Below are positions 1-20,000 of a DNA stretch of 20,000 bases, in pieces. The notes under the pieces were generated by a model. The model saw only the letters and a list, made by a program, of their open reading frames with translations, ran no database searches and was not told the DNA's origin. Within the stretch, counting starts at the first letter, position 1, and each line of letters starts with the position of its first letter. The stretch is taken from positions 48,320,427-48,340,426 of the forward strand of contig NC_057719.1 in assembly GCF_004010195.1 (NCBI RefSeq). Direction: 5' to 3'. Position numbers and translations under genes: made by a program. This DNA comes from Chiloscyllium plagiosum (Eukaryota).

Positions 1-1013
1 CTTGGTACCTAGAACAGCAATGTATAGATTAGCTAAGGAGCTACACCAAAGACTAAAACTTTGTAGAAGACTCACATCACTCCATCCACTCCACCCAAGA
101 ATTCCTGAACAACATCAAAGACACCAAGATAGAAGAGGATGAAATGATGGTCTACTTTGACGTAACAGCCCTGTTCACATCCGTCAACATCAACCTGGCC
201 AAAGAAATACTGACTACACTATTAGAACCAAAGACACATACACCAAACACCACCAACTTCATCAGCAAGGACAATATCATCAAGCTAGTGGACCTATGCC
301 TTACTACCCACTTCACTTTCAATAACAAAACCTACAGACAAACCAATGGGACGCCCATGGGATATCTGCACTTAGCAGAGGCAGTAGTGTAGCAATTCAA
401 ACAAACAGCTCTGCCAACCATCCAACCCATACTTTGAGTCCGCTACGTGAATGGCACTTTTGTCATCACTAAAGAAAACGAATTAGAGGATACCTTCAAC
501 ACCATTAATAATTTCCTTACTGGCATAAAATTCACTAATGAGGAGGAAAACAACAACAAACTGCCATTCCTAGATGTCACAGTAGATCGAACAGCCAATG
601 GGGAACTTAAAACCAGTGTCTACAGGAAAACAATACATCCGGACCAAATACTGAACTACAGAAGCAATCATCCAAACACCCACAAACAAAGCTGCATTAG
701 AACATTATTTCAATGAGCCATCACACACTGCAGCATAGAGGAACTATGAAGAGCAGAGGAAAATCACGTATACAGTGTATTCAAAAAGAATGGGTACCCA
801 ATGAAAACGGTCCGCCGATTTCTCAGCACCAAACCCAAACAAGCAGACAAAATACATCCAGAAACCTTAGCCACTCTCTCCTACATCAAAGACATCTCGG
901 AAATGACTGCCAGACTACTCAGACCTCTTGGCATCATGGTAGCCCACAAACCCACCAACACACTAAAACAGCAGCTAATGAACTTGAAAGACCCCATACA
1001 GACAAAAAGCTAA
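1..1013 (+). pseudogene. PLE reverse transcriptase and thumb/linker, disrupted by stops and frameshifts
   Basis: ORFs 144-392, 447-716 and 801-1013 give YFDVTALFTSV, YRQTNGTPMG and EEENNNKLPFLDVTVDR...VYRK..H...ILNYRSNHP. The catalytic RYVDD is mutated to RYVNG (441-455). In-frame stops at 390-392, 714-716 and 1011-1013. Confidence 0.92.
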
Positions 1014-1310
1014 ACTAATGTCATTTACAAAATATCTTGCAAGAACTGTAACAAACACTACATTGGACAAACTGGCAGAAAACTAACCACCAAGATACAT
1101 GAACATCAACTAGCCACAAAAAGACATGGCGCACTATCACTAGTATCCTTACATATGGATGAGGAAGGACACCACTTCGACTGGGACAACACATTCAACT
1201 TAGGATAAGCCAGAGACACACACAAGAAATACTAGAAGCATGGCATTCCAACTGGAACTCTATCAACAAATACATCATCGTGGGCTCTGTTTATCAACCT
1301 CTGAGAAAAA
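1014..1310 (+). pseudogene. PLE GIY-YIG endonuclease domain, disrupted (absent from the ORF track)
   Basis: Manual translation past the TAA at 1011 gives TNVIYKISCKNCNKHYIGQTGRKLTTKIHEHQLATKRH...HHFDWDNT: VIY at 1020, YIG at 1059, CxxC between them. Stop at 1206, then a frameshifted ILEAWHSNWNSINKYI. Confidence 0.92.
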
Positions 1311-1413
1311 GAACAGAAAATGACATCACCACCACAAATGACATCACCAATCCAAGGAAACCTAAACACATAAATAGATAGCGGATCACTAACACCAGTG
1401 CTTCACCAGAGTC

Positions 1414-1453
1414 TCACTAATGAAGTTACCTAGTATAGTGACGAAACATCTGA
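1414..1453 (+). ncRNA. Degenerate minimal type-I hammerhead ribozyme in the PLE 3' UTR
   Basis: CUAAUGA (G5>A) at 1417-1423; stem II GUUAC(1425-29)/GUGAC(1438-42); GAAA at 1443-46; CAUC (from CGUC by CpG decay); stem I UCA(1414-16)/UGA(1451-53). Confidence 0.75.
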
Positions 1454-1529
1454 AAATGAATCTTCCAGCTGAGTGAGCAAATTTACATCCAGAACCACAA
1501 CCTAAACTACAAACTTCTCAAAACTGCTG

Positions 1530-3424: not shown

Positions 3425-3823
3425 ATGACTATAAGACGTGTAGCTTGTTAAGTCTACTCCACATTCATTGAGATCATGGCTGATCTGATAACTCTCAACT
3501 CCATTCTCCTGCCGTTTCCCCATAACTCTTGATTCCTTTATGGATTTAAAATCTCAATTTCAGCCTTGAATATACATAATGATCTATAGCTCTGTATAGG
3601 AAAGAATTCCACAGATTATGCCCTCTGGTCCAAGACTCTTCTGCAAGGGGAAACAACCTTTCTGCATCTACCCTGACAAGTCCCCAAAGAATCTTGTATG
3701 TTTCAGGAGGGTTGCTTCTCATTCTTCTAAATTTCAATGAGTATAGGGCCAACCTACTCAAGCTTTCTTCATAAGATAGCCCATACATATCTGGTATTAG
3801 CTTGGTGAACCTACTCTGGACCA
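3425..3823 (-). mobile_element. CR1 LINE (minus strand), 3' segment; continues at ~4976
   Basis: ORF 3546-3824 VQSRFTKLIPDMYGLSYEESLSRLALYSLKFRRMR..ETYKIL is the CR1 ORF2 C-terminus; CR1 3' UTR at 3430-3545. Confidence 0.9.
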
Positions 3824-4457
3824 CTACCTCTCTCGGAATGGCAGGCAGTGACCAGTGGGGTACCGCAGGGATCAGTACTGGGAACGCAGCTTTTTACAAT
3901 ATATGTTAATTATATAGAAGACGGTATGAGCAATAACATTAGCAAATTTGCTGATGATACTAAGCTGGGTGGCAAGGTGAAATGTGATGAGGATGTTAGG
4001 AGATTACAGGGTGACCTGGACAAGTTAGGTGAGTGGTCAGATGCATGGCAGATGCAGTTTAATGTGGATAAATGTATGGTTATCCACTTTGGTGGCAAGA
4101 ACAGGAAGGCAGATTACTACCTAAATGGAATCAATTTAGGTAAAAGAGCAGTACAGAGAACTCTGGGTATTCTTGTACACCAGTCAATGAAGGTAAGCAT
4201 GCAGGTACAGCAGGTAGTGAAGAAGGCTAATAGCATGCTGGCCTTCATAACAAGAGGGATTGAGTACAGAAGCAAAGAGGTTCTTCTGCAGCTGTACAGG
4301 GCCCTGGTGAGACCACACCTGGAGTACTGCATGCAGTTCTGGTCTCCAAATTTGAGGAAAGACATTCTGGCTATTGAGGGAGTGCAGCGTAGGTTCACGA
4401 GGTCAATTCCTGGAATGGCGGGATTACTTTACGCTGAAAGGCTGGAGCGACTGGGCT

Positions 4458-4490
4458 TCCTGATGAAGGGCTTTTGCCCGAAACGTCGAT
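4458..4490 (+). ncRNA. Minimal type-I hammerhead ribozyme with intact catalytic core
   Basis: CUGAUGA at 4460-66, A, stem II GGGC/UUUU/GCCC at 4468-79, GAAA at 4480-83, palindromic ACGU stem III, GUC cleavage triplet ending at 4487. Stem I is only 2 bp in this copy (UC/GA). Confidence 0.85.
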
Positions 4491-4584
4491 TTCGAAGCTC
4501 CTTGGATGCTGCCTGAACTGCTCTGCTCTTCCAGCACCACTAATCCAGAATCTGGTTGCCAGCATCTGCCGTCATTGTTTTTAC
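4459..4584 (+). mobile_element. Short non-autonomous hammerhead-bearing element, family A
   Basis: Splits the CR1 sequence between ...CTGGGCTT and (A)CTCTTGAGTTTAGAAG; homologous to 5106-5237, 16406-16622 and 16769-16878. Confidence 0.88.
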
Positions 4585-5105
4585 TCTTGAGTTTAGAAGA
4601 CTGAGAGGGGATTTGATTGAGACATATAAGATTATTAAAGGATTGGACACTCTGGCGGCAGGAAACATGTTTTCGCTGATGGGTGAGTGCCGAACCAGAA
4701 GACACAGCTTAAAAATACGGGGTAGACCATTTAGGACAGAAATGAGGAGAAACTTCTTCACTCAGAGAGTGGTGGCTGTGTGGAATGCTCTGCCCAGTCT
4801 CTGGATTCATTTAAGAAAGAGTTGGATAGACCTCTCAAGTATAGTGGAATCAAGGGTTATGGAGATAAGGCAGGAACAGGATACTCATTAAGGATGATCA
4901 GCCATGATCATATTGAATGGTGGTGCAGGCTGAAAGGGCAGAATGGCCTACTCATGCACTTATTGTCTATTGTCCTTTGATAAGGGACCCAAACTATTTA
5001 TAGTACTCCAGCTTGGTTTGACTAGTGCCTAGTATAGTTTCAGCAAAATCTCCCTACTTTAATGCTCTGTTCCCTTTTCAGTAAAGTCAACATTCCATTT
5101 ACTTT

Positions 5106-5237
5106 AGGCAAAAGTGGATACTGCAGATACTGGAGATTAGAGTCAAGATTAAATGGCGCTGGAAAAGCACACCAGGTCAGACAGCATCCAAGGAACAGGA
5201 AAATCGACATTTCAGGCAAAAACTCTTCATCAGGAAT
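5106..5237 (-). mobile_element. Family A hammerhead-bearing element with possible 5-6 bp TSD
   Basis: Reverse complement: ATTC-CTGATGA-A-GAGT-TTTT-GCCT-GAAA-TGTC-GATTTTCCTG..GGATGCTGTCTGACCTG..TCTCCAGTATCTGCAGT. TACTTT flanks at 5100-5105 and 5237-5242. Confidence 0.85.
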
Positions 5238-6102
5238 ACTTTCCCTATTACCTGCCTAATTGGATGCTAGCTTTTTGTGATTCATGGGCAAGAACTTCCA
5301 AATCTGTTATGTAGCTTTCTGCAGTCTTTCACTATTTAAATAATATTCAGTTCCTTTATTCTTCCTGCCAAAGTGTAAAACCTCAATTTTCCCTGCATTA
5401 TATTCTATCTGCCAAGATTTTGCCTAGTGCATAACCTGTCTATATCCCTCCACAGACTCTTTGTGTCATTCACGCCACTTATGTTCCCATCTTTTTTTTT
5501 GTTATCTGTAAATTTGGCTATAATACATTCACTTTCCTCATCCAAGTTGTAATATATATTGTAAATAATTGTGGCCCAAGCACTGATCCCTGTGGCACTC
5601 CACTAGTTTCAGGTGAAAATGATCCCCTTATCCCAACTCTCTATCTTCTCTTAGTTAGCCAATTCTTTATCCATGCTAACATACTGCCTCAAGCATCACA
5701 AGCTCTTATTAAGTAGCCTATTGTGTGTTAACTTATCAAACACTTTCTGAAAATCCAAACAAATTACATCCACTGCTTCATCTTTATCTATCTTATTTGT
5801 TACCTCCTGAAAGAATTCTAGTAAATTTGTAAGACAGAATTTTCCCTTCATGAAGTCATGCTGACTCTGCTCGATCATATTATGCATTTTTAAATATTCA
5901 GCTATTATATCCTTTATAATAGACATTAAGCTAACTGGCCTATAGTTACCTGTTTTTGTTGTCTCCTTCACTTTTTAACATAAAGTTGATAAATTGGCAG
6001 TTTTCCAATCCTCTGGGACTTTTCCAGAATCTAAGGATTTCTGGAAGATTATTACCATTGCATTTACTCTCTATCACTACTTCCTTTAATGTCTTAGTTT
6101 GC

Positions 6103-6583
6103 CTGAATCCCGTTTGCTTGGATTGGTACAGCTCCAACAACACTAAAGAAGCTTGATGCTATTCAGGCCAAAGCACTGGTGTGATTGGCACCAAATCCAC
6201 AAGCAAATACTCCTTTTACCACCAAGGCTCAGTTGTAACATTGTGTATTATCTACAAGATATCTGCAGAAATTTACCAAAGATCCTCAGATTGCACCTTC
6301 CAAACCCACAACTCCTTCCATCTGGAAGGACAAGGGTAACAGATACGTCGGAACACCATCACCTACACATTCTCCTCCAAGCCACTCAGCCACTGAGTTC
6401 CTTCACTGTCGCTGGGTGAAAATCTTGAAATTCCCTTTCTAAGGGCATTGTGGGTCAACCTACAGCATATGGACTGCAGCAGTTCAAGAAGGCAGCTCAC
6501 TACCACCTTCTCATGTGCAACTAGGGACTGGCTATAAATGTTGGACAACCAGCAATACTCATGTCCCACAAGTAAATAAAAAA
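6103..6583 (+). mobile_element. 3' end of a distinct non-LTR LINE (CR1/L2 group, family uncertain) nested in the CR1
   Basis: Decayed C-terminal coding region (APTTLKKLDAIQAKA), TTCAAGAAGGCAGCTCACTACCACCTTCTC, and a TAAATAAAAAA terminus. The host CR1 resumes at 6584. Confidence 0.75.
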
Positions 6584-7361
6584 TCTGCATCCATCAGGTC
6601 TAGTGGACTTCTTTAGCCCAATTAGTTTTGTGAGCTCTTTTTCTCTAGTGATAGTTGTGGCACTTATTTCCTCTCCTTTTGCCCCTTGATACTTTAATAA
6701 TTTTGGAATGCTAATAACGTCTTCTAATGTGAATGCTGATGGAACTCCTCTGCCATGTACTAATTTCCCAGCCTCAGTCTCTTAGGGGTCTATGTTCACT
6801 TTGGCTTCTCTCTTCCTTTCTACATATTTAAAGCTCTTGCAGTCGGTCTTGATATTACTTACAAGTTTCCCTTTAATGTTTATCTTCTCCCCTTTTATTA
6901 GCTTTTGGTCATCCTTTGTTGGATTCTAACACTTTTCCAATCCTCTGGCTTACCACTAATCTTTGCCAATTTGCCATTGTATGTTTTTCTTTCAATTTGA
7001 TACTATCCATGTTTTTCTGAGTTTGGTGTGAATTGTGTCATTACTTCTTAGTTTTCTAAACACCAAGAAAATGGATTTTACAAAAGCCATTTGCGTTAAC
7101 ATTGTACCTATATTTCTAAGACTTCTGAAATGTTTTTTTCAGATCACTATCTTTCTTCATAGTTACTGTATTTTTTTCTGTGTAGGAGGAATGTGTGCAA
7201 TTTACCAATTTTGGTGCTTGAAAATTGCTATCAGTGACACTTATGGTGGTTGGGGATAAATCTAAGAGAATGAAGGTGTGAAAGATCTATGATAATTATG
7301 TTATGGGAGGGATGAGAGACGTGGGGGAGAGAGCATTTGGGAAGGGGTGAAAGATCTTGGA

Positions 7362-7398
7362 TTGTAGGGTTGGTGTAGGGTTGTAGGGTTGGTGTAGG
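7362..7398. repeat. Tandem duplication of the 19-mer TTGTAGGGTTGGTGTAGGG
   Basis: Copies at 7362-7380 and 7381-7398; the first 18 nt are identical. Confidence 0.85.
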
Positions 7399-7891
7399 TG
7401 ACAAGTTGATAGACCGCTAAGAGTAGAGGAGATGCGAAAATGAGTTATTCTATAGTTTTTTTTTTGAGTAAAAAACACTTACCTTTCCACTGGATTTTGC
7501 AAAACAGAAATCAAGACTCAAAGGTGAAGCAATTAGGTAATGCCCATTATTAAAAAAAGCTGTGGTGGAGCAGTTGTTAGCGTTATGTTACAGCTCCAAG
7601 GGAGATATTGTAGCAGGACTCCAAAATCTCAGTTGGAGGCCTCACAGTTTGGGAAGTCTTGCTTTAGGATGAATGTGATTCATTGAACTTATTAGGAAGC
7701 ATGAAGCTCATTATTCAGTCTGGTTCAGTGCGAGAACAAATCATTTCTTGATGACCTGGACCTTTTGCATCATATTTCTAAAACATTGATTAAAGCAGTT
7801 AATAAGCCATTACTAAAATCAAGCCTCTGCTTGAACAATTTGTGTCTTCTGTTTTTGACTGTATGGTATATAGAATTACATCATATACTTA

Positions 7892-8082
7892 TGATTTGGA
7901 GTTGCCGGTGTTGGACTGGGGTGTACAAAGTTAAAAATCACACACCACCAGGTTATAGTCCAACAGGTTTAATTGGAAGCACTAGCTTTTGGAGTGCTGC
8001 CTGATGAAGGAGTAGCGCTTTGAAAGCTAGTGCTTCCAATTAAACCTGTTGGACTATAACCTGGTGTTGTGTGATTTTTAAC
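7892..8082. mobile_element. Family B hammerhead-bearing element in inverted (palindromic) configuration with ~14 bp TSD
   Basis: Arms 7930-8000 and 8012-8082 are near-perfect reverse complements, and the left arm extends further to 7892. Flanks ACATCATATACTTA (7878-91) and ACATTATATATTTA (8081-94) match 12/14. Confidence 0.88.
8000..8032 (+). ncRNA. Minimal hammerhead ribozyme, family B
   Basis: CUGAUGA at 8001-07, A, stem II GGAGU/AGC/GCUUU (wobble-decayed), GAAA at 8022-25, palindromic AGCU stem III, CUA triplet ending at 8029. Confidence 0.8.
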
Positions 8083-8149
8083 ATTATATATTTAAGTCAC
8101 ATGAATAGAGCTATTATGTGTCACATGATGTTTATGCGATACAAGGGCT

Positions 8150-8525
8150 CCCCACTATCTTACTTCATTTCACCTTATGAACATCTATGTTAATCACTTC
8201 AGCCACTCTATTTCTAAATTATACATTCTGATCACTCAGTGAAGAAGTTCCTCTTTAATTCCTTATTTGACTTATTAATGACAATCTTACACTTAGGGTA
8301 CCTATTTTCAGATGCCCACAAGTGAAAACATATCTGTCTAACATATTGATCCCTTTCAAACTTCAAAGACCTATTATATAACCACTCAGTTTTCTCTTTT
8401 TTATAGAACAAAGAACTCCAGCATGTTTAATCTTTACTGATGGTTGTGTCTACTTAATTGTAGATTCATTGTTAAACCTTTTCTCCAGTGCTTCTATATC
8501 CTTTCTTTAATAGGTAAACCAGTGT
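8150..8525 (-). mobile_element. Old CR1 LINE 3' fragment
   Basis: Similar to the reverse CR1 3' region (TCACTCAGTGAAGAAGTTCCTC; CCCACAAGTGAAAACAT; CCACTCAGTTTTCTC..AGAACTCCAGCATGTTTAATCTTT). Boundaries approximate. Confidence 0.7.
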
Positions 8526-9055
8526 CGAAGATTTTTTTGCTCTGACAAAACAGTAAATCAGTTTAACCCTTAACATGTTAAAGTGTTGCGCTTTAAAAAT
8601 TAACTGAACATTTTAAAAGCAAGAAGATAGTCATGATTGAATAATTTATCACATTCTTTTCTGTGTTTTATTTGTACCACATTATCCACTTCATTGTCAG
8701 GGTCATTTTAACACAGAAGAAATATTGACGAATCTGCTTTTTTCCCTGTAATGGTTTTGTTGTGAAATCAAACTGTTGGCCTGCTCTCAGGTTTTTGTTA
8801 GAGAATGAAAGGGACTTCATATTGCTTTTAATATTGCTTTTCATATTGTTGATGGGGTATCAACATGAGAGACAGATTGTTGACTTATTTAAATTGATCT
8901 CTTTGTATCAAGGCATGATATTCATTTGGTAGCATGAAGATCAAATCTACATCTTGTTATTTTGTGGTTTAATGTTTTGAAGTTCCAAATGCCACAAATG
9001 ACAGAGTAGTCATTTTATTTGTGACATATTGACATTGAGTTGCAAAGACACATTG

Positions 9056-9120
9056 GATTCAAAATGTTTTCTTTCTTGCTCCCTTCAAAGATGCTGCCAG
9101 ACCTGTTGTGCTCTTCACTT
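9056..9120 (+). mobile_element. Highly decayed fragment of a hammerhead-element family (3' half of core + conserved box)
   Basis: GGATTCAAAATGTT...GATGCTGCCAGACCTGTTGTG resembles GGACTCAAAATGTT...GATTCTGCCAGACTTG starting at 13600. Confidence 0.55.
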
Positions 9121-9197
9121 TCTGCTAGTATTACACATTGACTAGGATGTTCACACTGACAAACGGATACTAGACCTTGCGAGGAATTTCACATCCG

Positions 9198-9492
9198 GAA
9201 TCATAGAATCCCTACAGTGTGGAAACAGGCCATTTGGCCCAACAAGTCCACACCGACCCTCTGAAGAGTATCCCAACCAGACCCATTCCCCTACCCCATT
9301 GCTCTACATTTCCCCTGACTAATGCACCTAATCTATACATCCCTGAACACTATGGGCAATTTAGCATGGGCAATCTACCTAACCTGAACATCTTTGGACA
9401 GTGGGAGGAAACCCATCCAGACACAGGGAGAATGTGCAAAATGAACCCGGGTCCCTGGTGCTGTGAGGCAGCAGTGCTAACCACTGAGCCAC
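9198..9492 (-). mobile_element. HE1-like tRNA-derived SINE (V-SINE superfamily)
   Basis: Reverse complement starts GTGGCTCAGTGGTTAGCACTGCTGCCTCACAGC (A box) and GGGTTCA (B box, clipped by a deletion). V-domain-like CCAAAGATGTTCAGGTTAGGTAGATTGCCCATGCTAAATTGCCC follows, then a CR1/HER1-type tail CCTGTTTCCACACTGTAGGGATTCTATGATTC. Confidence 0.92.
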
Positions 9493-10531
9493 TAACCTAT
9501 AAAGATTTCCTTCAGTCCTAAAGCCATTTGATAGCTATCTTAATGTAATTGGCATGAAATAATTAGATCAGGATCATTCTAAGCAAAAGCCACATCCATA
9601 CTTTCATGTTATCTTAATTTAGTTCAGCTGCATAAGTGCATCTGTATCTGGACATATTGCAGTACATATTCAAACCAATATAATTAAATCATTCCTTTTA
9701 TTGGTAAGATTTACAAGACTAAATAAAACATAAGCTCACTTGCTGACTTAATGATCTTAAGCACATGTTCATTCAGTTCGTAATGTACAGCTCTGTTTAA
9801 TTAATCTTATTAATGCTTTTGTGTGTTACATTTGCAAACTGTGATTGGTGATTAAAAAAGCTTTCCAGCTTTAAACTTCCAGGACAGAGATCTCAAGTTG
9901 CAACAATTTCACTGTAGGAGTTGAGTGGTGGGTTTGAGAATGCAGAGAATTTGACAGGATTCCGAACAAAAGAGACTCTTTGATTAGATCAGAATGGCTT
10001 TTGTTTCTTCTCTCTGTTTGAGCTTTGGATCTGTCAAATAAAATGTCTGGCATAAGGAATGTTGCACATTTGGCAGTTTTCCATTTTATTGAACTGTATC
10101 CTGCTTTCATGCAGACAATTGGCAAACACTATATGGCTTTCAAATGCAGATTAACACATTGTGGGTGTATTGCGCTGTGTATCCCATTGTTGATGTTCCA
10201 AACTCAACACACATATGTTATCAAAATTAGTTTTTGTGATCGCTGCATGGAGATGTCGAGACAAAGTGGTCAAAAGAATAGCACCATGCCTTAAAACACA
10301 GGCAGTTGACTAAAAGAAAGCATTACTGGCACGGGCTTCATACATATATTGCAATTATATTTTTAAAAATTAAATTACAGCCAAACCTATCAGAGTGAAT
10401 ATTATGACAAATGCTTTTATGACTGATCTGGGAACTGAGATCAGCTGCAGAATTGCTCAGCTCATTGATAAGAGCTTTGGACAAAAAAATTTCAGAGAAT
10501 TTGTACAAGTTATGATAACTGATACATTCTC

Positions 10532-11638
10532 AGGCTAATATTTTGTCAATTGGAGAACACCTCAGCCATGATGGAAATGCTGGAAAAAGTTGGGAACCTC
10601 AAGTCCGAACCTGACATCTCTCATTGTTGTGGTGACAGACTTGATGTTGGGTTATAGTTCACACATGCATAGTTCCTGGATGCAGCTGGTCTTCCTGGAA
10701 GCAGCTGGCCAATTAAATAACCAGATGGCTCCACAGAAATCAGATTTTGGAGTTCCAGGTGTCTGGGATCTGGAGTGGAGAGATTAGTCCTGGAGAGAGC
10801 AGGTCTGTTTTCAGTGCATTTCTTTGGGGTAGCCCTGCATATGGCCTCTGTTCACTTGACGGGAGTGCAGGGTGCTGGGTTAAAGATTCTTTTGGGAGTG
10901 GGCGGAGGGAATATCCTTTAGTCGGAATATATCATGTGCCCTTTGAGACTATTAACATTGGAAAGGAGTGTGTGTAAGGTGCAAAAGCCCTTTGGAACTG
11001 TTCATCTTGTCAAGAACTCTGGTCTTATGAATGGAATGCTTTTCTCAGTACAGTGTAGCCTGTAATATAAAATTTTAGGTAAGACAACTATGTTTTTCTT
11101 CTGTGTGCATGGGCACTTGTGGATACTCAATGAATTGGCAAGGCAGATGACAATGGAAAGGATGGTGGGAAAGTAGGTACTAAGTTGGTATAGAAATGTG
11201 AAGGTCTATGGGGATGGGGAGGGGCATTAGCTTGTATGTAATGATATGGGTAGGGATCTGGTCCTCAGACCCTTTGCTGCTAATAAGGTGCTCTTTAGTG
11301 GAGATAAAGCACCACATAGGATTGTGAAAAAACAAGTTACTTAACTGCCATGCTTTCTGAGAGTGCTGGGCAGTTTTAGAATGCCACTGTTTGTCTGGGT
11401 GTACAACAGCATTTTATTGATGGAGCTGATGCCAGAGTTGCCTGTCTACTCTGGGTGGTCCTGGTAGTGGAACATACTCATGGTTACGGCAAATGGCAGA
11501 ACCAAGCTAGCTTCATATAGGATTGATGCCATAGGGGTTGGGGTTGGTAATTAATGTGGCAAGTGTGGGATAATTGCATGAGAAAATGCAATGATACCCT
11601 TCATGAATATGACACAGCCAAAATATAAGATTTAGCCC
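10532..11638. mobile_element. Possible ancient non-autonomous DNA transposon (Harbinger-like ends)
   Basis: G-rich block bounded by weak inverted ends: AGGCTAATATTT at 10532 and AAGATTTAGCCC at 11627-38. No transposase and no clear TSD. Confidence 0.25.
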
Positions 11639-12004
11639 CATGTGTTTGAACACGTTTTTGGTCATCTGACCTAATAGTTCCTTACATGGTTTGGCTTATT
11701 CTGTTTCATATTGCTCCTTGAAGTGTTTTGGGATATTTCAATGCAATCAAGGATACCTGCCTGATTTGGAATGTGGGCATCAAGGATTGGCACCAGACCC
11801 ATACAGAGATCCATGTAAAGACCCAGATTCATTTTAATTTTATTATGTCTTGGTGCCAACTTCAGATTTATATCTTTTTTTATCAGGTTTCTGTCTTCAT
11901 TCACTGCTTTATGGCAGTCTTATTTGCAAGGTAACTGAGTGTGTGTTGCTTGTTTATTAAGTTACGTGTTTGCAGATTGTTCTGAAGATATAATCAAGTT
12001 TCGC

Positions 12005-12073
12005 TTCGGCGGGTCGGTGTGGACTTGTTGGGCCGAAGGGCCTGTTTCCACACTGTAATGTAATCTAATCTAA
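12005..12073 (+). mobile_element. 5'-truncated HE1/HER1 3' tail, young
   Basis: GGGTCGGTGTGGACTTGTTGGGCCGAAGGGCCTGTTTCCACACTGTAATG plus a TAATC-repeat tail; matches the reverse complement of 9213-9260 with CpGs retained. Confidence 0.88.
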
Positions 12074-12855
12074 GTTCACGTTGAAGATTTGTTTAATAAA
12101 TATAACTGTGTTTCCGTGCTGTATGACTCCATGGGACTATGGATTGCTTTCATCAAAGTGTTCTTACCAGTAAATATAGAAAGTTCCAAATTTTGTTATC
12201 ATTAGAAAATTTTCTCCGGTGACATTTTCAAGTTTTGAAAAGTCAATGAAAAGTTATTGATAAGTTATTTGACAAGTTATTTCACCATGTTAACCCCAAT
12301 AATTCCAGACTGGCTAAAATGTATCTACAACAATGTAATGAAGACAACTTGAGCTGTAAAATATCTCAACTGTGCTTCTTGTTCATCTTTTGTGGCAAAG
12401 ATAAATATGTTCATTAACTCTAATGTTTGGTATGGATCCACTTGGTAAAAAGATGAGTGCTAAAGTTGATCTGCAAATAAGATGTTGCAAATAAGACAGG
12501 ATTTCATGGACAGTTGAGTTTTCACAGGTAGCTTATTCAGCATTTATTCTGTTTGCGCTTACTTTCTGGCTCTAATATGTGCTTGCTTTGAAAGGATGCC
12601 AAATGATTTTTATTTGGTTATGCCAGATGTAATAATCCTGGGTGAGCTTTTCCTAGGATTCAAAATCAATTTTAATAAAAGTCTGAAGTGAATATTCAGT
12701 GTCCTTGTAGCACTTCCTCTGATTTCATTGAGACCACACTCCAGAGTCAAGTTCTCCATAAGCAAGTATCAGGTGTTTCCATACAGCACACAAGAAGAAC
12801 TATTTCCCTACCCTGCTTGTACCAGTTTGGGACTGTGTGTCTATGTTATTGTATT

Positions 12856-13152
12856 ATAAGAACTAGGAGTAAGCAATTCAGCTTCTTGAGCTTGCTCCCC
12901 CATTTGAAACGATCATGGCTGATCCCATCTCGGATTTAATTCCACTTTCCTGAAGTTCTCCCTAAGCCTTCAACCCATCATTAATTAAAAATCTGTCTAT
13001 CTCTTCCTTAAAGTTACACAATGTCCCAGCACTCACACCATTACCCTTTGGGTAGTGAATTCAACAGATTCATGGCCCTTTGAGAGAATTACTTTCTCCT
13101 CAGCTCTATTTTAAATCTGTTAAACTTTACATTTATCCTAAAACTATGACTT
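12856..13152 (-). mobile_element. CR1 LINE 3' end
   Basis: AGAACTAGGAGTAAGCAATTCAGC..GATCATGGCTGATC..GGGTAGTGAATTCAACAGATTC..CTAAAACTATGAC is the reverse CR1 3' UTR and ORF2 end. Confidence 0.85.
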
Positions 13153-13216
13153 CATCTGGAGGTTGGATGCTTATTTGGACAAGTCAAAAATCTACTCTAT
13201 GTATCTTTATAGTGCC

Positions 13217-13580
13217 TATAGAATGCACATAGGAACATGAGTAAGCCATTCAGCCCCTGAGTCTGCTCTGTGATTCACTAAGATGATGGATAATGATGGC
13301 CAATGTGTGGCCTAACTCCACATTCCTGCCTTCGGCCTATGTCCCTTGATACCTTACTTAATGAAAAATTATCTGTCTGATTTAAGTTTAACAATTGAAT
13401 TAGCGTTGACCGCATTTTGAGGACGAGAGTTCCAAACCTCCTCTACTCTGTGTGGGTAGAAGTGCTTTTTAACACATCTCCTGAATGGTCTGGCCCTAAT
13501 GCTTAGAAAATGCCCCTGATTCTGGAAACTTCAACGAGGAGAAATAGTTTATCTACCCAGTCTTTCTCTGTTAATATCAT
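13217..13580 (-). mobile_element. CR1 LINE 3' end (second copy)
   Basis: ATAGGAACATGAGTAAGCCATTCAGCCCC..GAGAGTTCCAAACCTC..CTGAATGGTCTGGCCCTAAT..ATCTACCC. Confidence 0.85.
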
Positions 13581-13584
13581 CAGA

Positions 13585-13710
13585 AGGACGAAAGTCACTG
13601 GACTCAAAATGTTAACTCTGTTTTCTCTCCACGGATTCTGCCAGACTTGAGTTTTTCCAGCAAATTTTGTTTTGGTTTCTGATTTCTAGCATCCGCCATT
13701 CTTTCTTTTT
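13585..13710 (+). mobile_element. Family C hammerhead-bearing element, decayed core
   Basis: Stem II AGTC-ACTG-GACT at 13593-13604, then C-AAAA-TGTTAAC (from CGAAACGTTAAC), GATTCTGCCAGAC box and GATTTCTAGCATCCGC 3' box. The CUGANGA segment is not recognisable. Confidence 0.7.
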
Positions 13711-13711
13711 G

Positions 13712-13975
13712 ATTATGGTCAGGGTGTTGCAATGTGTTGTCCTACTTCCTTTAACACCTGGGGATTTGTCATTATTCAATTCCGTTAATTTTCCCATTGT
13801 TGATGATTTACTTAAGCTAATTTTATTTAGAAGCTGCCCCGAATCCCTCTTAATTTGTTTGGGATTTCCAGCAAGTCATCCTCTCTTTCTGCTGTGAATA
13901 CTTAAGAAAAATAATACCTCCCATTTCCCCATGGACAGTGACAATATTCTCACTCTCAATCTTCAGTGGGCCAAA
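13712..13975 (-). mobile_element. CR1 LINE internal fragment (region upstream of the RT domain)
   Basis: ORF 13612-13797 begins MGKLTELNNDKSPG, matching the CR1 KL..L..DKSPG(PD) motif. Confidence 0.7.
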
Positions 13976-14584
13976 TGGAATTGAAAGGAGAGAATAAAAT
14001 CAGTACCTTGTATTGCATCATATTTCTCAAAGTGTATTTTCAGCATCTTGCGCAGTGTTGATGAATCAGTTGTGTGATTGGTAAAATTATCAATGCTCAT
14101 ACCCAGTTTGAAAAAAGAAGTTTATTTCTGCTCAATTTGTTTATTTGTATTCAGTAAGTTCTTGTTACTCTGAATAGTGTTCATTGAAGCAGACAAATTT
14201 GAGTAGTTTAAGCCAGGGGAATAACCTTAGAATGTACTTGCTTTTTAACACATGGTTATCATTATGATCAGTCTTCCTCATGCAGTCTCTGATGATTATT
14301 TGCTACATTGTCAGTGCTTAATGGTGACTGAAGAAACAATGGGCTGTGATTAGTCTGAAATAGATCAAGCACACTGATTCCTGTAGTACTTTCCCTGGAG
14401 TTACTTTCCCTTTTAAAGAACTTACTGAGTCATACGAACTTTTATTCACTTTTGAGTTTTCATATGGTAACGGGATTAGGTTTTGATTTAGATAAATGAA
14501 AATTTCCTTTTTGAGATCTCATAGTTTTTCAAGAGTTGAATTTTTATTCAATGCCCCCCTCATGATAACTCGGCATTTTACAGA

Positions 14585-14798
14585 AAGCAACAAATGCTGG
14601 AGATCACAGCAGGTCAGACAGCATCCATGGAGAGACAGCAAGCTAATGTTTGAATTCTAGATGACTCCATCAGAGCTGAAGTGATGTATGGAGAGGACAG
14701 CATTTATACTATGTTTGGAGGGAGGGGGGTAGTACACGTAGGCTGCTGGAGGAGAAAAGATGCTGATAGTTCAGATTAAGCGATTGGAGTGTGAGAAT
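14585..14798 (-). mobile_element. Family D hammerhead-bearing element with perfect 13 bp TSD
   Basis: GGCATTTTACAGA at 14572-84 and 14799-811. Reverse complement has AGCT-CTGATG-GAGTC-ATCTA-GAATTC-AAA-CATT-AGCT then GGATGCTGTCTGACCTGCTGTGATCTCCAGCATT. Confidence 0.85.
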
Positions 14799-15171
14799 GG
14801 CATTTTACAGACTAACATGAACATGTCATAAACCGATAGACTTTATGGGGAATCTTTTTCACTGTGCTCATTGTAATTAAGTCCGAAGTAAGAATGGGTT
14901 TCTGATTTGAAAATGTTAGGAATCTCAAAGATTTTTTCTAACTAAAATAGAATAGCACAGAGGAAATCTCCCTTTCTCCTACAATGCTTTTAGAACTAAA
15001 GTTCCAATGTCACTTAGGTATCAAATTGAATTTTGGGTGCTTCAATGCAAATGCTGGCATGTAATTCAAGAGAATGGAATGCCTTAAAACTGAAATCATC
15101 AAATTGTCTTAAGCCAAAATGCCTAGTAGAGATCCTAACTCATGGCTAACAGGAGCATGTTAGTTCTAAGG

Positions 15172-15316
15172 TTTTTTATTCATTCACGGGATGAGGGTGT
15201 CATTGGCTAGGCCAGCATTTATTGCCCACCCTTAATTGCCCAGAGGGCAGTTAAGAGTCAAACACATTGCTGTCGGTTTGGAATCACAAGTGGACCAAAC
15301 CAGATAAGGATAACAG
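15172..15316 (-). mobile_element. SINE-like 3' fragment sharing its tail with the LINE at 6103-6583
   Basis: Reverse complement ends GGGCAATTAAGGGTGGGCAATAAATGCTGGCCTAGCCAATGACACCCTCATCCCGTGAATGAATAAAAAA, homologous to 6515-6583. Upstream of that it is unrelated to the LINE. Confidence 0.75.
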
Positions 15317-15319
15317 AGA

Positions 15320-15574
15320 TGAGGGTTTTTTTTCTTATGGATTGTGTGACTTTACAACTGAGTGCCTCAGGCAGCAGTGCCGAGGCAAGGCCATTACATA
15401 TTTTTAAGACAGTGATAGATTCTTGTTAGGCAAGGAAATCAAATGTTATTGGTATAGATGGGTATGTGGAATTTCAAGCACAAGTAATTCAGCCATGATC
15501 GTATTGAATAGTGGACCAGGTCTGAGGGGTTGAATGATGTTCTTCTTCTCCTATCTGGTCTGCTTGTATATTTA
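15320..15574 (+). mobile_element. CR1 LINE 3' end
   Basis: ATATTTTTAAGACAG..GATAGATTCTTG..TCAGCCATGATCGTATTGAATAG..GAGGGGTTGAATG..CTCCTAT. Confidence 0.8.
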
Positions 15575-15576
15575 TA

Positions 15577-15660
15577 AGATGCTGAAAAAAGCAGGAAATC
15601 AGGCAGTGTCTGAGGAGAATGAATAAGTGTTAATGTTTCATATCTGACCTTCTGTTGAAA
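15577..15660 (-). mobile_element. Very decayed family C-like hammerhead-element remnant
   Basis: Reverse complement AGGTCAGATATGAAACATTAACAC..TTCTCCTCAGACACTGCCTGATTTCCTG resembles GAAACGTTAACTC..CTCCACAGATGCTGCC. Confidence 0.5.
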
Positions 15661-16049
15661 TGTAATCATACCACCTAATATAAATGAGACAGTAGCAGCA
15701 CAATAATCCTGCTCAGTCTTCTGCAATCTTAATAGCAGCAGAAATTTAAGGTTGGACACTATTTTAATATGTAAACTGGCATCCTATGAGGTACATGAGA
15801 TCCTGTTTGTATTTTTGTGATAAAAATGACCAGTGTAAACTGACAATAGAGGCGGCAGAAAACCTTTTATTGCATTTCATTTTTGTGGACCTGGGAAATC
15901 CAATAGATTACTTCTACCCTTATAAAAATACAGTGGCCCTCTGTTGTCTCTTATTTTGCCCAATACTTGGATTGTTCACCATCACTGCACTGAAATTAAC
16001 TAAACAAAACAAAAATAAGCCCACCATTCAAATTATATTATTTCATTCG

Positions 16050-16185
16050 TTTTGACTATTTTGACATGTATTAAGGGATATGGAAACAAGGTATATAATT
16101 GAAGTTAGGACAAATGTCTCCTTGAATGGCAAAAGGAACTTGAGGGGCTGAATGGAGTACTTCTGTTTGTATTTTGTATGTTTCC
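16050..16185 (+). mobile_element. Old CR1 3' UTR fragment
   Basis: GTATTAAGGGATATGG..TTGAATGGCAAAAGGAACTTGAGGGGCTGAATGG..TATGTTTC. Confidence 0.7.
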
Positions 16186-16405
16186 AATGAAGTATTAAAC
16201 TTGCAATACATTCAGATTGATTGAGAAAAGAAAATTGAATTCTCTGGATTAAGTATGGAGTAAGATTCCATTCATTGCTCCAGAACACAAACTTAACCCA
16301 GAATATTTAAATGAAAGATTTGTTAATACTGTATACTAAAATCATTGAGCTGTGTTGTTGCTAGAGATCACTTTTAATATCAACAGTACAATGATAATGA
16401 AACAG

Positions 16406-16622
16406 GGAGAAAGTGAGTGCAGCAGATGCTGGAGATCTGAGTCAAGAATGTGGTTCTGTTAAAGTACAGCCGGTCAGGGAGCATCTGGTGACCAAGAGAA
16501 TCAAAGTTTCATTGCATAAGCCCTTAATCATTCCTGATGAAGGGCCTATACCCAATATGCTGATTCTCCTGCTCCTTGGATGATGCCTGACTGGCTATGC
16601 TTTTCCAGCACCACACTCTGGA
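16406..16622. mobile_element. Family A hammerhead element in inverted configuration with ~17 bp degenerate TSD
   Basis: Minus arm 16406-16530 and plus arm 16531-16622 (CTGATGA at 16534-40, GGGC-CTAT-ACCC, decayed GAAA). Flanks CAATGATAATGAAACAG (16389-405) and CAAAGATAACAAAACAG (16623-39) match 14/17. Confidence 0.85.
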
Positions 16623-16768
16623 CAAAGATAACAAAACAGCCTACCATGTGCTTTGACTTTAGTCTTAATGAAATTATTTCCATGGGACTAATCTGAAACT
16701 ATATTAATAATTAACCTTTGTTCTGAGAATAAGCTGTTTTGAATACAGGAGTATGTTATATTTTAATG

Positions 16769-16878
16769 CTGAAAATGTGTTGCTGGAAAAGCGCAGCAGG
16801 TCAGGCAGCATTTAAGGAGCAGGAGAATCGACACATTTTCAGCTCTGATCTCCAGCATCTGCAGTCCTCACTTTCTCC
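16769..16878 (+). mobile_element. Family A element lacking the ribozyme core, 5' part inverted, perfect 15 bp TSD
   Basis: TGTTATATTTTAATG at 16754-68 and 16879-93. Inverted 5' segment 16769-16830, then forward 3' segment ACACATTTTCAGCTCTGATCTCCAGCATCTGCAGTCCTCACTTTCTCC. Confidence 0.9.
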
Positions 16879-17749
16879 TGTTATATTTTAATGTCAATAA
16901 TAAAATTAGCATTTCTTATTTGTGGTATATTATTTTTAATGTGCTTGAGTTGGAAATAAATTGCCAGTAGGAGCACTGAATCAAAACTTCTAGCTGAATT
17001 TGCAGAAGGACTTCTGCTCAGTGGGTGATTAGTTGAAGATATGTGAGGGGTGATGGTTGTAGAGGGGAAAGTAAGTGCACATCACTTTGGGATACATAAA
17101 CATTTCCAAAAGTGAAATTTTCTGCGGGTTGAAGAGCGAAGCCCATAGGAGAGGTGAAAAATAAAAAATAAGAAATCTGATTACTGTTTTTATGCCAAGT
17201 GTAGGACTTTGGAAACTTTTTGGAGTTCCCTGTTCTTCAGTAGAATGTAGCTGCAGATTAGATGAAGACTAGGGAAATTCTTGTTTTTGTTTCTGTAAAC
17301 AGTTTCTGTTACGTCAACAAAATAAATGACTCCTTCTCGAATGGAGATCCCTGCTGTTTTTCCCAGTACAAATTTGTTAACACTTACAAGATGTGGATAT
17401 TTTTCTCTTGTGAAGTTTGAAGTGTGAAGTTATCTGATTTCAACAGTTTTTACATGGTTCCGTTTGACAGGCATCAATGTTTACTTGATGTGTAGGAACC
17501 TTGACAGAAATTCCAAAGAAAATTCTCTTGAAAAAAGTGACTGGACAAATCTTGTTGACTCCATCATTTTCAGACTTAAATTCCTTCCTTAAACCTTTCT
17601 GTTTCTCCACTTGTTTTTGTTGGTCTTCATAAAGATATTGGTCTTTGTGTTCATTAGAGCGTGTACAGCATTTTAACTGCAGGGCAACTAAAGACCACAC
17701 AGTATCCATTTCAGCAGCAAAAGCAGGACTTTGACAACAAGCTGCTCAG

Positions 17750-17879
17750 GTAAGTACTTTTTTTTTAATTTTTAAGGCATTCTGCGGGCCAGAGATAACA
17801 GGACTGATTTTTGTTCTGGTTAATATACTTTGGACCTCCATATTCCCCATTTCTGACTTATTGGGACTGTTTCTTTCAG
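17750..17879 (+). other. Candidate short spliceosomal intron (130 nt)
   Basis: Consensus donor CAG|GTAAGT at 17747-55, branch-like CTGAC at 17853-57, and pyrimidine tract + CAG (TGTTTCTTTCAG) ending at 17879. Confidence 0.35.
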
Positions 17880-18379
17880 GGTTTCAGATGGTAGCCAAAC
17901 CACTACAAATGTTGCTTAGCATCAAGTGTGAATTAGCATGTAAATGAGACCCTGGGATCATTATTTGCCCAACATCACAATCTGCTGGGGGTGATGGGGC
18001 ATCTGAGGCATCCAGCTTGCCTCTTGTAACTATCCACATTCTCAATTCCTGTTCCAAGGCGAAATCAGGGCTTGAGTGTCAGAATCTAACAAAACATGAC
18101 TTGCTGTCTATTATCATCTATACTACTGTATTTGAGTTGATTGGATTAGACATTGCCAGATTATACACATGAAATACTTCTCATTCACAGATGATTTTCC
18201 TTAAATATTTAATGCTGAATACTTCTAGGTCAGACTAAGAAACTCGATCTTACAAAAGTGAAAGTAAAATCTTGTTAGTATTTGGTTATTCTGATACTTT
18301 TTCTTTTTGATTGGTTAAAAGGTCACTGCCACCAACAAGCTGCTCAATCTTGTGAACTGACTGTGTAGAGAAGGAACTT

Positions 18380-18855: not shown

Positions 18856-19163
18856 ATATACCTTCATGTTGAATTCAACAAACCATTCTGTGGCTTCAGC
18901 TGACTTGAGTGTAATTTTCTGATCTTGCTGGCTGAGAGGCAGAAAGGACATTTAGGTAGAATGGTTGCAGGTTCTCTTTCCTGATGCAAAAATAAAATTC
19001 TGTTCTTATGGTGAACAGTTGAGATGCTATCCAGCATCACTCTTTTAGGGCAGAAGTTCAATATGCTGGTGATAATCTGACTTTGATGACCAAACCTTGC
19101 CAATCAGATTCCTAGTTCAATTTAGATTTAGAGGATTTCCTGTGACAGACAAAGCAAGTGCTT

Positions 19164-20000
19164 ATAGAGTCATAGAGATGCACAGCATGGAAACAGACCC
19201 TTTGGTCCAACTCATCCATGCCAACCAGATATCCCAACCCAATCTAGTCCCACTTGCCAGCACCCGGCCCATATCCCTCCAAACCCTTCCTATTCATATA
19301 CCCATCAAATGCCTCTTAAATGTTGCAATTGTACCAGCCTCCACCACATCCTCTGACAGCTCATTCCATACACGTACCACCCTCTGCATGAAAACATTGC
19401 CCTTAGGTCTGTTTTATAACTTTCCCTTCTCACCCTCAGCCTATGCCCTCTAGTTCTGGACTCCCCGACCCCAGGAAAAAGACTTTGTCTATTTATCCTA
19501 TCCATGCCCCTCATAATTTTGTAAACCTCTTTATGGTCACCCCTCAGCCTCCGACGATCCAGGGAAAACAGCCCCAGCCTGTTCAGCGTCTCCCTGTAGC
19601 TCAGATCCTTCAACCCTGGCAACATCCTTGTAAATCTTTTCTGAACCCTTTCATGTTTCACAACATCTTCCCGATACGAAGGAGACGAGAACTGCACGCA
19701 ATATTCCAACAGTGGCCTAACCAATGTCCTGTACAGCCGCAACATGACCTCCCAACTCCTGTACTCAATACTCTGACCAACAAAGTAAAGCACACCAAAC
19801 ATCTTCTTCACTATCCTATCGACCTGCGACTCCACTTTCAAGGAGTTATGAACCTACACTCCAAGGTCTCTTTGTTCAGCAACACTCCCTAGGACCTTAC
19901 CATTAAATGTATAAGTCCTGCTAAGATTTGCTTTCCCAAAATGCAGCACCTCGCATTTATCTGAATTAAACGCCATCTGCCACTTCTCAGCCCAATGGCC
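19164..20000 (-). mobile_element. HER1-like CR1 LINE, relatively young; runs off the window
   Basis: ORF 19305-19841: IEYRSWEVMLRLYRTLVRPLLEYCVQF.SP..VQKRFTRMLPGL..YRE.LNRLGLFSL.RRRLRGD..EVYKIMRG. The 3' UTR and tail at 19164-19230 are homologous to the HE1 tail. Confidence 0.95.

Follow-up and report, generated by a model that had tools for sequence, protein, structure and literature searches.

Short hammerhead-bearing inserts in the Chiloscyllium plagiosum genome are very probably end-pieces of protein-coding Penelope-like elements

Nine short inserts, most with traces of a minimal hammerhead ribozyme, lie between positions 4457 and 16878 of a repeat-rich vertebrate DNA stretch of 20,000 nucleotides (nt) from the 3.56-Gb genome of Chiloscyllium plagiosum; this whole stretch is referred to as the window. 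A previous reading of the letters (the original prediction) had described them as a dispersed system of ribozyme-processed, non-autonomous retroelements moved by Penelope-like elements (PLEs), and all nine are present at about the places it gave. The positions of their ends (+/-) are counted from the C of the CUGANGA box. On the plus strand, a family A solo stub occupies 4457..4584 (-3 to +124, the C of CUGAUGA being position 4460), with an intact minimal hammerhead whose stem II is GGGC/GCCC, a long 3' end and no target-site duplication (TSD), and is placed within a CR1-like open reading frame (ORF) remnant. The family B1 solo stub at 5106..5237 (minus strand, -4 to +126) has a mispaired stem II. 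Three of the inserts are head-to-head pairs, a feature that had not been noticed. In the first, a family C long arm (7892..7998, minus strand, +17 to +118, with its tail) is joined to a short arm (7997..8084, plus strand) with an intact core at 8001, an ATTAAA polyadenylation hexamer and a GU-rich stretch. The second consists of a family B2 long arm with a decayed core (16406..16530, minus strand, +1 to +121) and a short arm that has lost its GAAA box (16528..16621, plus strand, -6 to +85), and the third of a family B4 short arm without a core (16769..16832, minus strand, +25 to +89) and a long arm (16831..16878, plus strand, +77 to +122). The family E copy at 14585..14798 (minus strand) has a decayed core and the short 3' end, and carries, also previously unnoticed, about 130 nt of 3' untranslated region (UTR), including TATAAAT, upstream of the core. 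The remaining three are an old D-like stub with the core missing (9056..9132, plus strand), a family D stub with a decayed core (13585..13711, plus strand, aligned from +10 to +113) and a very decayed D-like stub (15577..15662, minus strand) with two weak genomic matches only.

TSDs are clear for the 14585 copy (perfect, 13 bp; 14572-14584 / 14799-14811) and the 16769 pair (perfect, 15 bp; 16754-16768 / 16879-16893), plausible for the 7892 pair (14 bp with 2 mismatches; 7878-7891 / 8081-8094), the 16406 pair (18 bp with 3 mismatches; 16388-16405 / 16622-16639) and the 9056 stub (8 bp; 9048-9055 / 9133-9140), and not convincing for 4459, 5106, 13585 and 15577. Insertion by a Penelope reverse transcriptase (RT) with a GIY-YIG endonuclease, as had been proposed, is supported, with long TSDs. 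The stub 3' ends are sharp and non-A, and the window contains no tRNA gene, in line with the earlier statement that a Pol III head and a poly-A tail are lacking; no tandem array of hammerhead units was found in the window either. A decayed Penelope/Poseidon-like copy at 1..1525 (plus strand) preserves the end of an RT, a GIY-YIG domain and a terminal repeat with a dead core, CUAAUGA, at 1417; it belongs to another family and is not the parent of the nine stubs.

The families were followed through a genome sample of 120 stretches (1.147 Mb without N), of which six adjoin the window and the remainder lie at round coordinates on large scaffolds, so that the sample is arbitrary rather than random. 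It contains 361 arms, or about one insertion per 3.9 kb once 65 pairs are merged. A strict scan for the core (CUGANGA, a stem II of at least four pairs, and GAAA) identified two cores in the window, at 4460 and 8001; the mean over 100 Markov shuffles was 0.1, and no shuffle gave two. In the first 60 sample stretches together with the window (585 kb) there were 37, against 3, 7 and 4 in three shuffles. Among the nine inserts an intact core with a paired stem II is found only in 4459 and 7892. Stem II is mispaired in 5106, GAAA is absent from 16406 and the 14585 core is decayed; 13585, 9056 and 15577 have decayed or partial cores and 16769 has none, as had been stated. Of five cores folded, only that of 4459 folded better than its shuffles (z -2.4), and an Rfam scan of the window returned no hammerhead family among its 10 weak matches. 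The miRNA-like Rfam matches at 7951-8060 were rejected, as they correspond to the family C inverted pair. A sequence search with positions 8020-8084 of the window gave no match.

Covariation between families is real, and the description of several families of Penelope-type minimal hammerheads with covarying stems is supported over 122 distinct core types. The first two positions of stem I pair in 79% and 85% of these types, against permutation maxima of 69% and 60%, in a test that is not phylogenetically corrected, since core types share descent. Position 15.2/16.2 is CG in 43 types, GC in 28, CA in 22 and TG in 19, and position 17 is G in just 2 of the 122. Stem covariation together with the kept core points to selection that would act on the parent elements and not on the stubs. 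Minimal hammerheads have been described to cleave weakly as dimers (PMC4209133) and to cleave with protein help (PMC11167929). In family H (L045:4750-4960, L180, L029), TTGACAA replaces CUGANGA in several copies, with both stems and TATAAATA at -35 being kept; in this young family the catalytic core may be lost or altered.

The short inserts are connected to coding copies. Among the 30 best genomic matches to the 4459 stub, 15 share 47-402 nt upstream, and three (L004, L013 and L025) reach a GIY-YIG reading frame; conversely, 19 of the 30 best endonuclease loci have a family A-type core downstream. One locus (L280) has an open frame of 462 amino acids with GVAMGT..GPSYA and YIDD motifs, a Zn-finger-like linker and a GIY-YIG domain (Pfam E=7e-4, below the curated cut-off), followed by a core near-identical to that of 4459. 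In the first 60 sample stretches, 10 loci have a B-type core 3' of an endonuclease. Among 25 loci each of families E, C and D, an endonuclease was found upstream in 15, 4 and 1, respectively. The parent frames encode RT and GIY-YIG in family A, and the endonuclease only in B, C, D and E; for 15577 and 9056, both old and with weak D-like matches, no parent ORF was demonstrated. The linker between RT and endonuclease contains a Zn-finger-like motif, CHRRNCKTC in family A and CHGRRCKT in family C. Such an extra motif at this place is a feature of the Neptune clade (PMC8557442), and the parents are probably Neptune-type PLEs, a clade name that is taken from the linker motif and not from a tree.

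The long copies were also informative about the 5' side of the element. At its long 3' end the family A module does not stop but passes into an open frame common to these copies, which has an ATG some 40 nt further on, and in 25 of 30 loci a pseudo-long terminal repeat (pLTR) stands directly upstream of this frame as a partial tandem. Of the 23 such pLTRs with an uncensored start, 21 begin at -10 or further downstream. Given this leader arrangement, both priming sites described below would lie in the RNA leader and also at the 3' end of the element. We infer that the 5' open frame is the start of the RT ORF, since all 15 of the long candidates contain assembly gaps. No continuation past the tail was observed in families C, B2, B4, D, E and P (58, 115, 111, 13, 11 and 27 copies, respectively). 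Internally deleted family A copies with two pLTRs are common (L304-L333, such as L313, L323, L325 and L330; 839 first-look candidates). In these, the leader and 90-570 nt of open frame are joined to the 3' UTR, often near -75, at differing 5' points, and they could represent template jumps, some of them mobile mini-elements.

Within the families the short copies do not form groups of their own: they are no closer to one another than to long copies in families A/B (p=0.078, 109 arms) or C (p=0.79, 53 arms), in tests of low power. The original prediction had itself named matches of its families to the ends of RT-encoding PLEs as evidence against an independent system, and such matches were found, to RT plus GIY-YIG in family A and to the endonuclease in families B to E. 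These links to coding copies, together with the lack of separate short clusters and of a pile of ends at the cleavage site, argue against an independent system of ribozyme-processed non-autonomous elements. The inserts are very probably end-pieces of protein-coding PLEs, and the stubs products of the coding families. The doubt that had been expressed earlier, namely that some inserts could be extreme 5' truncations of longer PLEs, is nearer the truth, with the qualification that the truncation point is sharp and not random.

The 5' ends (counted without arms next to N or to the end of a stretch) are concentrated at one place. Among the 200 Neptune-type arms that extend to +4, 125 end within -10..+4, a share of 62% that is somewhat high because a few old B2 and C copies counted there are actually long; six other bins of 15 nt lose 5-21%, the stops being also raised just within the core (21% at +5..+19). 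The predicted cleavage site (+28 in A/B) showed no such pile. Only 7 of 148 arms end at +26..+31, against 40 at -7..-2, and ribozyme cleavage consequently does not define the unit; arms starting at the cleavage site were rejected as an account on these counts. An artefact of unrecognised upstream subfamilies was likewise rejected for most copies, as the solos at the barrier have unique flanks, and TSDs surround 14 of 78 of them against 0 of 151 controls (the TSD counts for barrier solos and for pairs take in the window too). The public reads agree with this position, with depth rising about tenfold from -4 onward (L025:1500 = -4) and 107 raw reads, together with 52 and 64 contigs, showing loose ends with mixed flanks before L025:1500. 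Of the read runs consulted, X1 and X3 are only presumed to be RNA.

The 3' ends are bimodal, at about +80..+95 and +115..+125, some 35 nt apart. Of the 65 head-to-head pairs, 54 combine one long and one short arm, six have no long arm and five have two. Among 67 pairs, 31 have flanking TSDs of 10-18 bp, as compared with 1 of 133 controls. The pairs at 7892-8084 and 16406-16621 are long hairpins (75-nt arms, 91% complementary); with 65 pairs of this kind in the 1.15 Mb sampled, they could make up a large source of double-stranded RNA in introns.

The position of the barrier was compared with a TATA-like motif in the long copies, TATAAA at -38/-40 in family C, TATAAA or CATAAA at -35 in D/E/H, and TTATCT or TTTATC at -35..-37 in A/B. 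Stem I starts at -3 or -4 in all families. In 39 family C loci picked only by sequence 3' of the core, the starts peak at -8/-9, and within -12..-2 the start medians are -8 in C (25 arms) and -4 in A/B (48 arms; p=0.0003, Fisher p=0.005). The barrier falls on an A, 30-32 nt beyond the TATA-like motif, and shifts with the motif between families, therefore fitting an RNA polymerase II (Pol II) start better than a fold boundary. The TATA-to-start spacing of Pol II promoters is well established. The base before the start is G rather than A in 10 of 15 solos, or 14 of 21 when pair arms are included, a weak post hoc observation (p~0.05) that was considered as a sign of a non-templated G at the 5' joint and set aside. 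The Poseidon-like family P has scattered starts, three of them at -27, and a sequence search for family G, a further Poseidon-like family intended for the comparison of TATA spacing, gave no copies.

Raw poly(A) single-cell reads from one run (X20), which is tied to this DNA only by its species label, place poly(A) in family C after +57 and +60, with 340 and 420 sense reads, respectively. The site lies 12-15 nt past the hexamer and is followed by a GU-rich stretch; among 58 pattern matches the hexamer is ATTAAA 41 times and AATAAA 17 times. Both family C genomic 3' ends (+84..+86 and +122) are downstream of it, and none of 76 sampled arms ends there. A family C RNA ended at +57/+60 has the priming sites in its leader only. 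In family B3 (the L172:5049 region and others) AATAAA occurs at about +76, which would place the poly(A) site between the priming sites or beyond them, in contrast to family C. No pile at the cleavage site was seen in the reads of families A and C, an observation that does not amount to a test of circles, and the family C sense depth shows no drop there. Over the family A endonuclease region (L025:900-1490) the same run gave reads in a ratio of about 3:1 toward the mate direction opposite to that of the family C sense poly(A) reads, hinting at antisense transcription.

The reading that we favour, and consider probable with some reserve, is that most stubs are short cDNAs primed 85-125 nt inside the 5' leader of the RNA, run off at the RNA start and then inserted. 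The barrier would be the Pol II start set by the TATA-like box 30-32 nt upstream, and the template RNA would not be cut by the ribozyme. The protein would prime in the leader, copy about 90 or 125 nt and run off the uncleaved 5' end, and the endonuclease would nick both strands about 10-18 nt apart. Use of one nick would yield a solo, and two nicks, each priming from a different start site, would produce one long and one short arm joined by their 5' ends. Stubs, being without the TATA box, would be mostly dead on arrival and seldom mobile again, and long copies would arise from read-through RNA or from a jump to the RNA 3' end, both of which would give the same product. A precedent in vitro is the Poseidon element PAc of the lizard Anolis carolinensis (Frangieh et al. 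2024, PMC11167929), whose protein cuts and extends both target strands and starts reverse transcription internally, at two sites by which the tail is defined and which are situated at the pLTR-ORF junction, downstream of the hammerhead; insertion does not need the hammerhead, and no reads end at the cleavage site. PAc differs in belonging to the Poseidon clade and in having an ORF that begins in stem II, whereas the first ATG after the family A module is about 40 nt past the long start site. The main text of that study describes neither run-off stubs ending at the RNA start nor a poly(A) site before the priming sites.

Several observations weigh against leader priming with run-off. No RNA 5' end was seen, and the reads show no site where many molecules begin or end; TTATCT/TTTATC of A/B is not a canonical TATA box; and the Poseidon-like families have no 5' pile (0 of 12 and 1 of 13 arms). 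The significant difference in start position opposes a targeted C set, consisting mostly of pair arms, to sampled A/B arms, and the comparison of solos only is not significant (5 versus 40, p=0.07). The poly(A) evidence is from family C in one run, a second run of the same sample having given 0 reads; no family A poly(A) was present among the 18 listed of 609 loose-end rows, and host transcripts making use of an inserted copy's signal may be the source of the poly(A) reads. With regard to the parent elements, an unbroken full-length copy was not seen, the A/B neighbour test leans toward clustering, and long copies are few in family D (2 of 69 arms). The main competitor is ordinary 5' truncation at a structural hot spot, in which an RT primed at the 3' terminal repeat of read-through RNA drops off or switches strand on leaving the hammerhead fold and the TATA spacing is a coincidence. 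In its favour, the barrier of A/B, D and E coincides with stem I's 5' strand, stops are raised just inside the core as well, and heavy 5' truncation is general in PLEs (PMC8557442). However, the family C mode, at -8/-9, is five bases outside stem I and agrees with the greater distance of the TATA in that family, Poseidon-like families share the fold yet show no pile, and the polyadenylated RNA of family C stops short of both 3' ends; we regard this truncation account as improbable, although it is the strongest of the competing explanations.

It is unlikely that some stubs are true non-autonomous elements, with an internal or neighbouring promoter, mobilised in trans by the Penelope protein and not processed by the ribozyme. 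Both priming sites lie within the stub, pLTR sequences are enough for mobilisation in trans (PMC3846280), an internal promoter is present in Drosophila Penelope (PMC2377424), family D is nearly all short and the internally deleted two-pLTR copies are common. However, A/B and C have no short-only subfamilies, the flanks at the barrier are not shared, the deleted copies differ in their breakpoints, and the stubs contain nothing 3' of the long priming site, where the binding region of the lizard protein extends (PMC11167929). Nor do the stubs have a Pol III head or a poly(A) or simple-repeat tail, as would be expected of short interspersed elements (SINEs). A circular template, produced by dimeric cleavage and ligation and copied from internal sites as proposed for PLEs and retrozymes, appears very unlikely. 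The core and stems are conserved across families, and a circle could let the RT pass from leader to 3' UTR without a jump (a proposal in PMC4209133), but hammerhead mutants insert normally in vitro (PMC11167929) and neither the DNA ends nor the reads mark the cleavage site, where family C sense depth does not fall. As a circle has no 5' end at -4/-8, it would leave the barrier unexplained.

The leader-priming reading can be extended by comparison with retroviruses and LTR retrotransposons, whose LTRs have a U3-R-U5 layout and whose first product, minus-strand strong-stop DNA, is a short cDNA of the RNA 5' end. Family C shows the same order of TATA, start, poly(A) site and priming site. Tentatively, the Neptune-type pLTR might be a working U3-R-U5 in which leader-primed strong-stop cDNA jumps through the hammerhead repeat to the polyadenylated 3' end, with no tRNA primer; we see this as a possibility rather than an expectation. 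These are not LTR elements, priming would be by nicked target DNA instead of tRNA, the short product would be inserted directly, and strand transfer is here a conjecture. If such a cycle were true, failed jumps on one or both nicked strands would explain the several hundred thousand stubs of the genome, and the stubs would map the RNA start of each family.

Dispersed solo minimal hammerheads of truncated PLEs, inverted pLTRs, tails and TSDs are already known (PMC4209133, PMC3846280, PMC8557442). The metazoan hammerheads described by Cervera and De la Pena (2014, PMC4209133) share this core, including the base that separates positions 9 and 10.1, a short stem I, a palindromic 15.2-16.2 and many covarying families per genome, and are mostly single motifs, probably of truncated PLEs, with some close opposite-strand pairs; the available parts of that paper name no shark and give no map of 5' ends, of promoter spacing or of poly(A) sites. 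PLEs that bear an endonuclease (Arkhipova et al. 2013, PMC3846280; Craig et al. 2021, PMC8557442) have an inverted 5' pLTR, a 30-40-bp tail on one end, a variable TSD, TATA and initiator-like motifs in a pLTR, solo pLTRs and partial tandems. The present families share the minimal hammerhead in a pseudo-LTR, the 30-40-nt tail (as two 3' ends), the inverted 5' repeat and the variable TSD. In those accounts, solo pLTRs are explained by recombination or deletion, and self-priming on antisense RNA is invoked for head-to-head palindromes, whereas the stubs described here have TSDs and a fixed 5' edge, and as a rule pair one long arm with one short. Non-LTR retrozymes (Cervera and De la Pena 2020, PMC7229834) are hammerhead-bearing non-coding units related to PLE pLTRs, with proposed mobility through PLE proteins, and have been traced to pLTRs in a study that sampled one chondrichthyan (Li et al. 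2026, bioRxiv 10.64898/2026.07.22.740005). They differ in being head-to-tail repeats with at least two hammerheads, whereas the inserts of the window are solos or head-to-head pairs in coding families. No retrozyme-type array was found in the window, and the sample contains solos and head-to-head pairs; one read-contig joint steps back 119 nt in family C. The killifish Neptune paper (PMC12602865), in its available parts, does not treat pLTRs. A literature search that covered few subscription journals found no published description of the run-off reading and nothing on shark Penelope hammerheads.

The surroundings of the inserts are themselves rich in repeats. ORF remnants at 3809-4950, 4970-6060 and 19160-20000, which we take to be of the CR1/L2 type, include those in which the 4459 and 5106 stubs sit. 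SINE-like repeats or 3' ends of long interspersed elements recur within the window at 9189-9495, 12004-12070 and 19167-19300, and presumably resemble shark HE1/V-SINE elements. Candidate host exons were noted on the plus strand at 17639-17750 and 17880-17910, with an acceptor-like run before 17682 and a donor-like gtaagt at 17750, which suggests that the window may be intronic.

For annotation, stubs of this kind should be counted as Penelope ends and not as new SINEs or retrozymes. They constitute a very large natural record of reaction products, from which base-level predictions can be made of the RNA start, the two priming sites, the nick spacing and, in one family, the poly(A) site. The sharp start, together with a poly(A) site located before both copying starts, provides a testable clue to how Penelope-like elements move.

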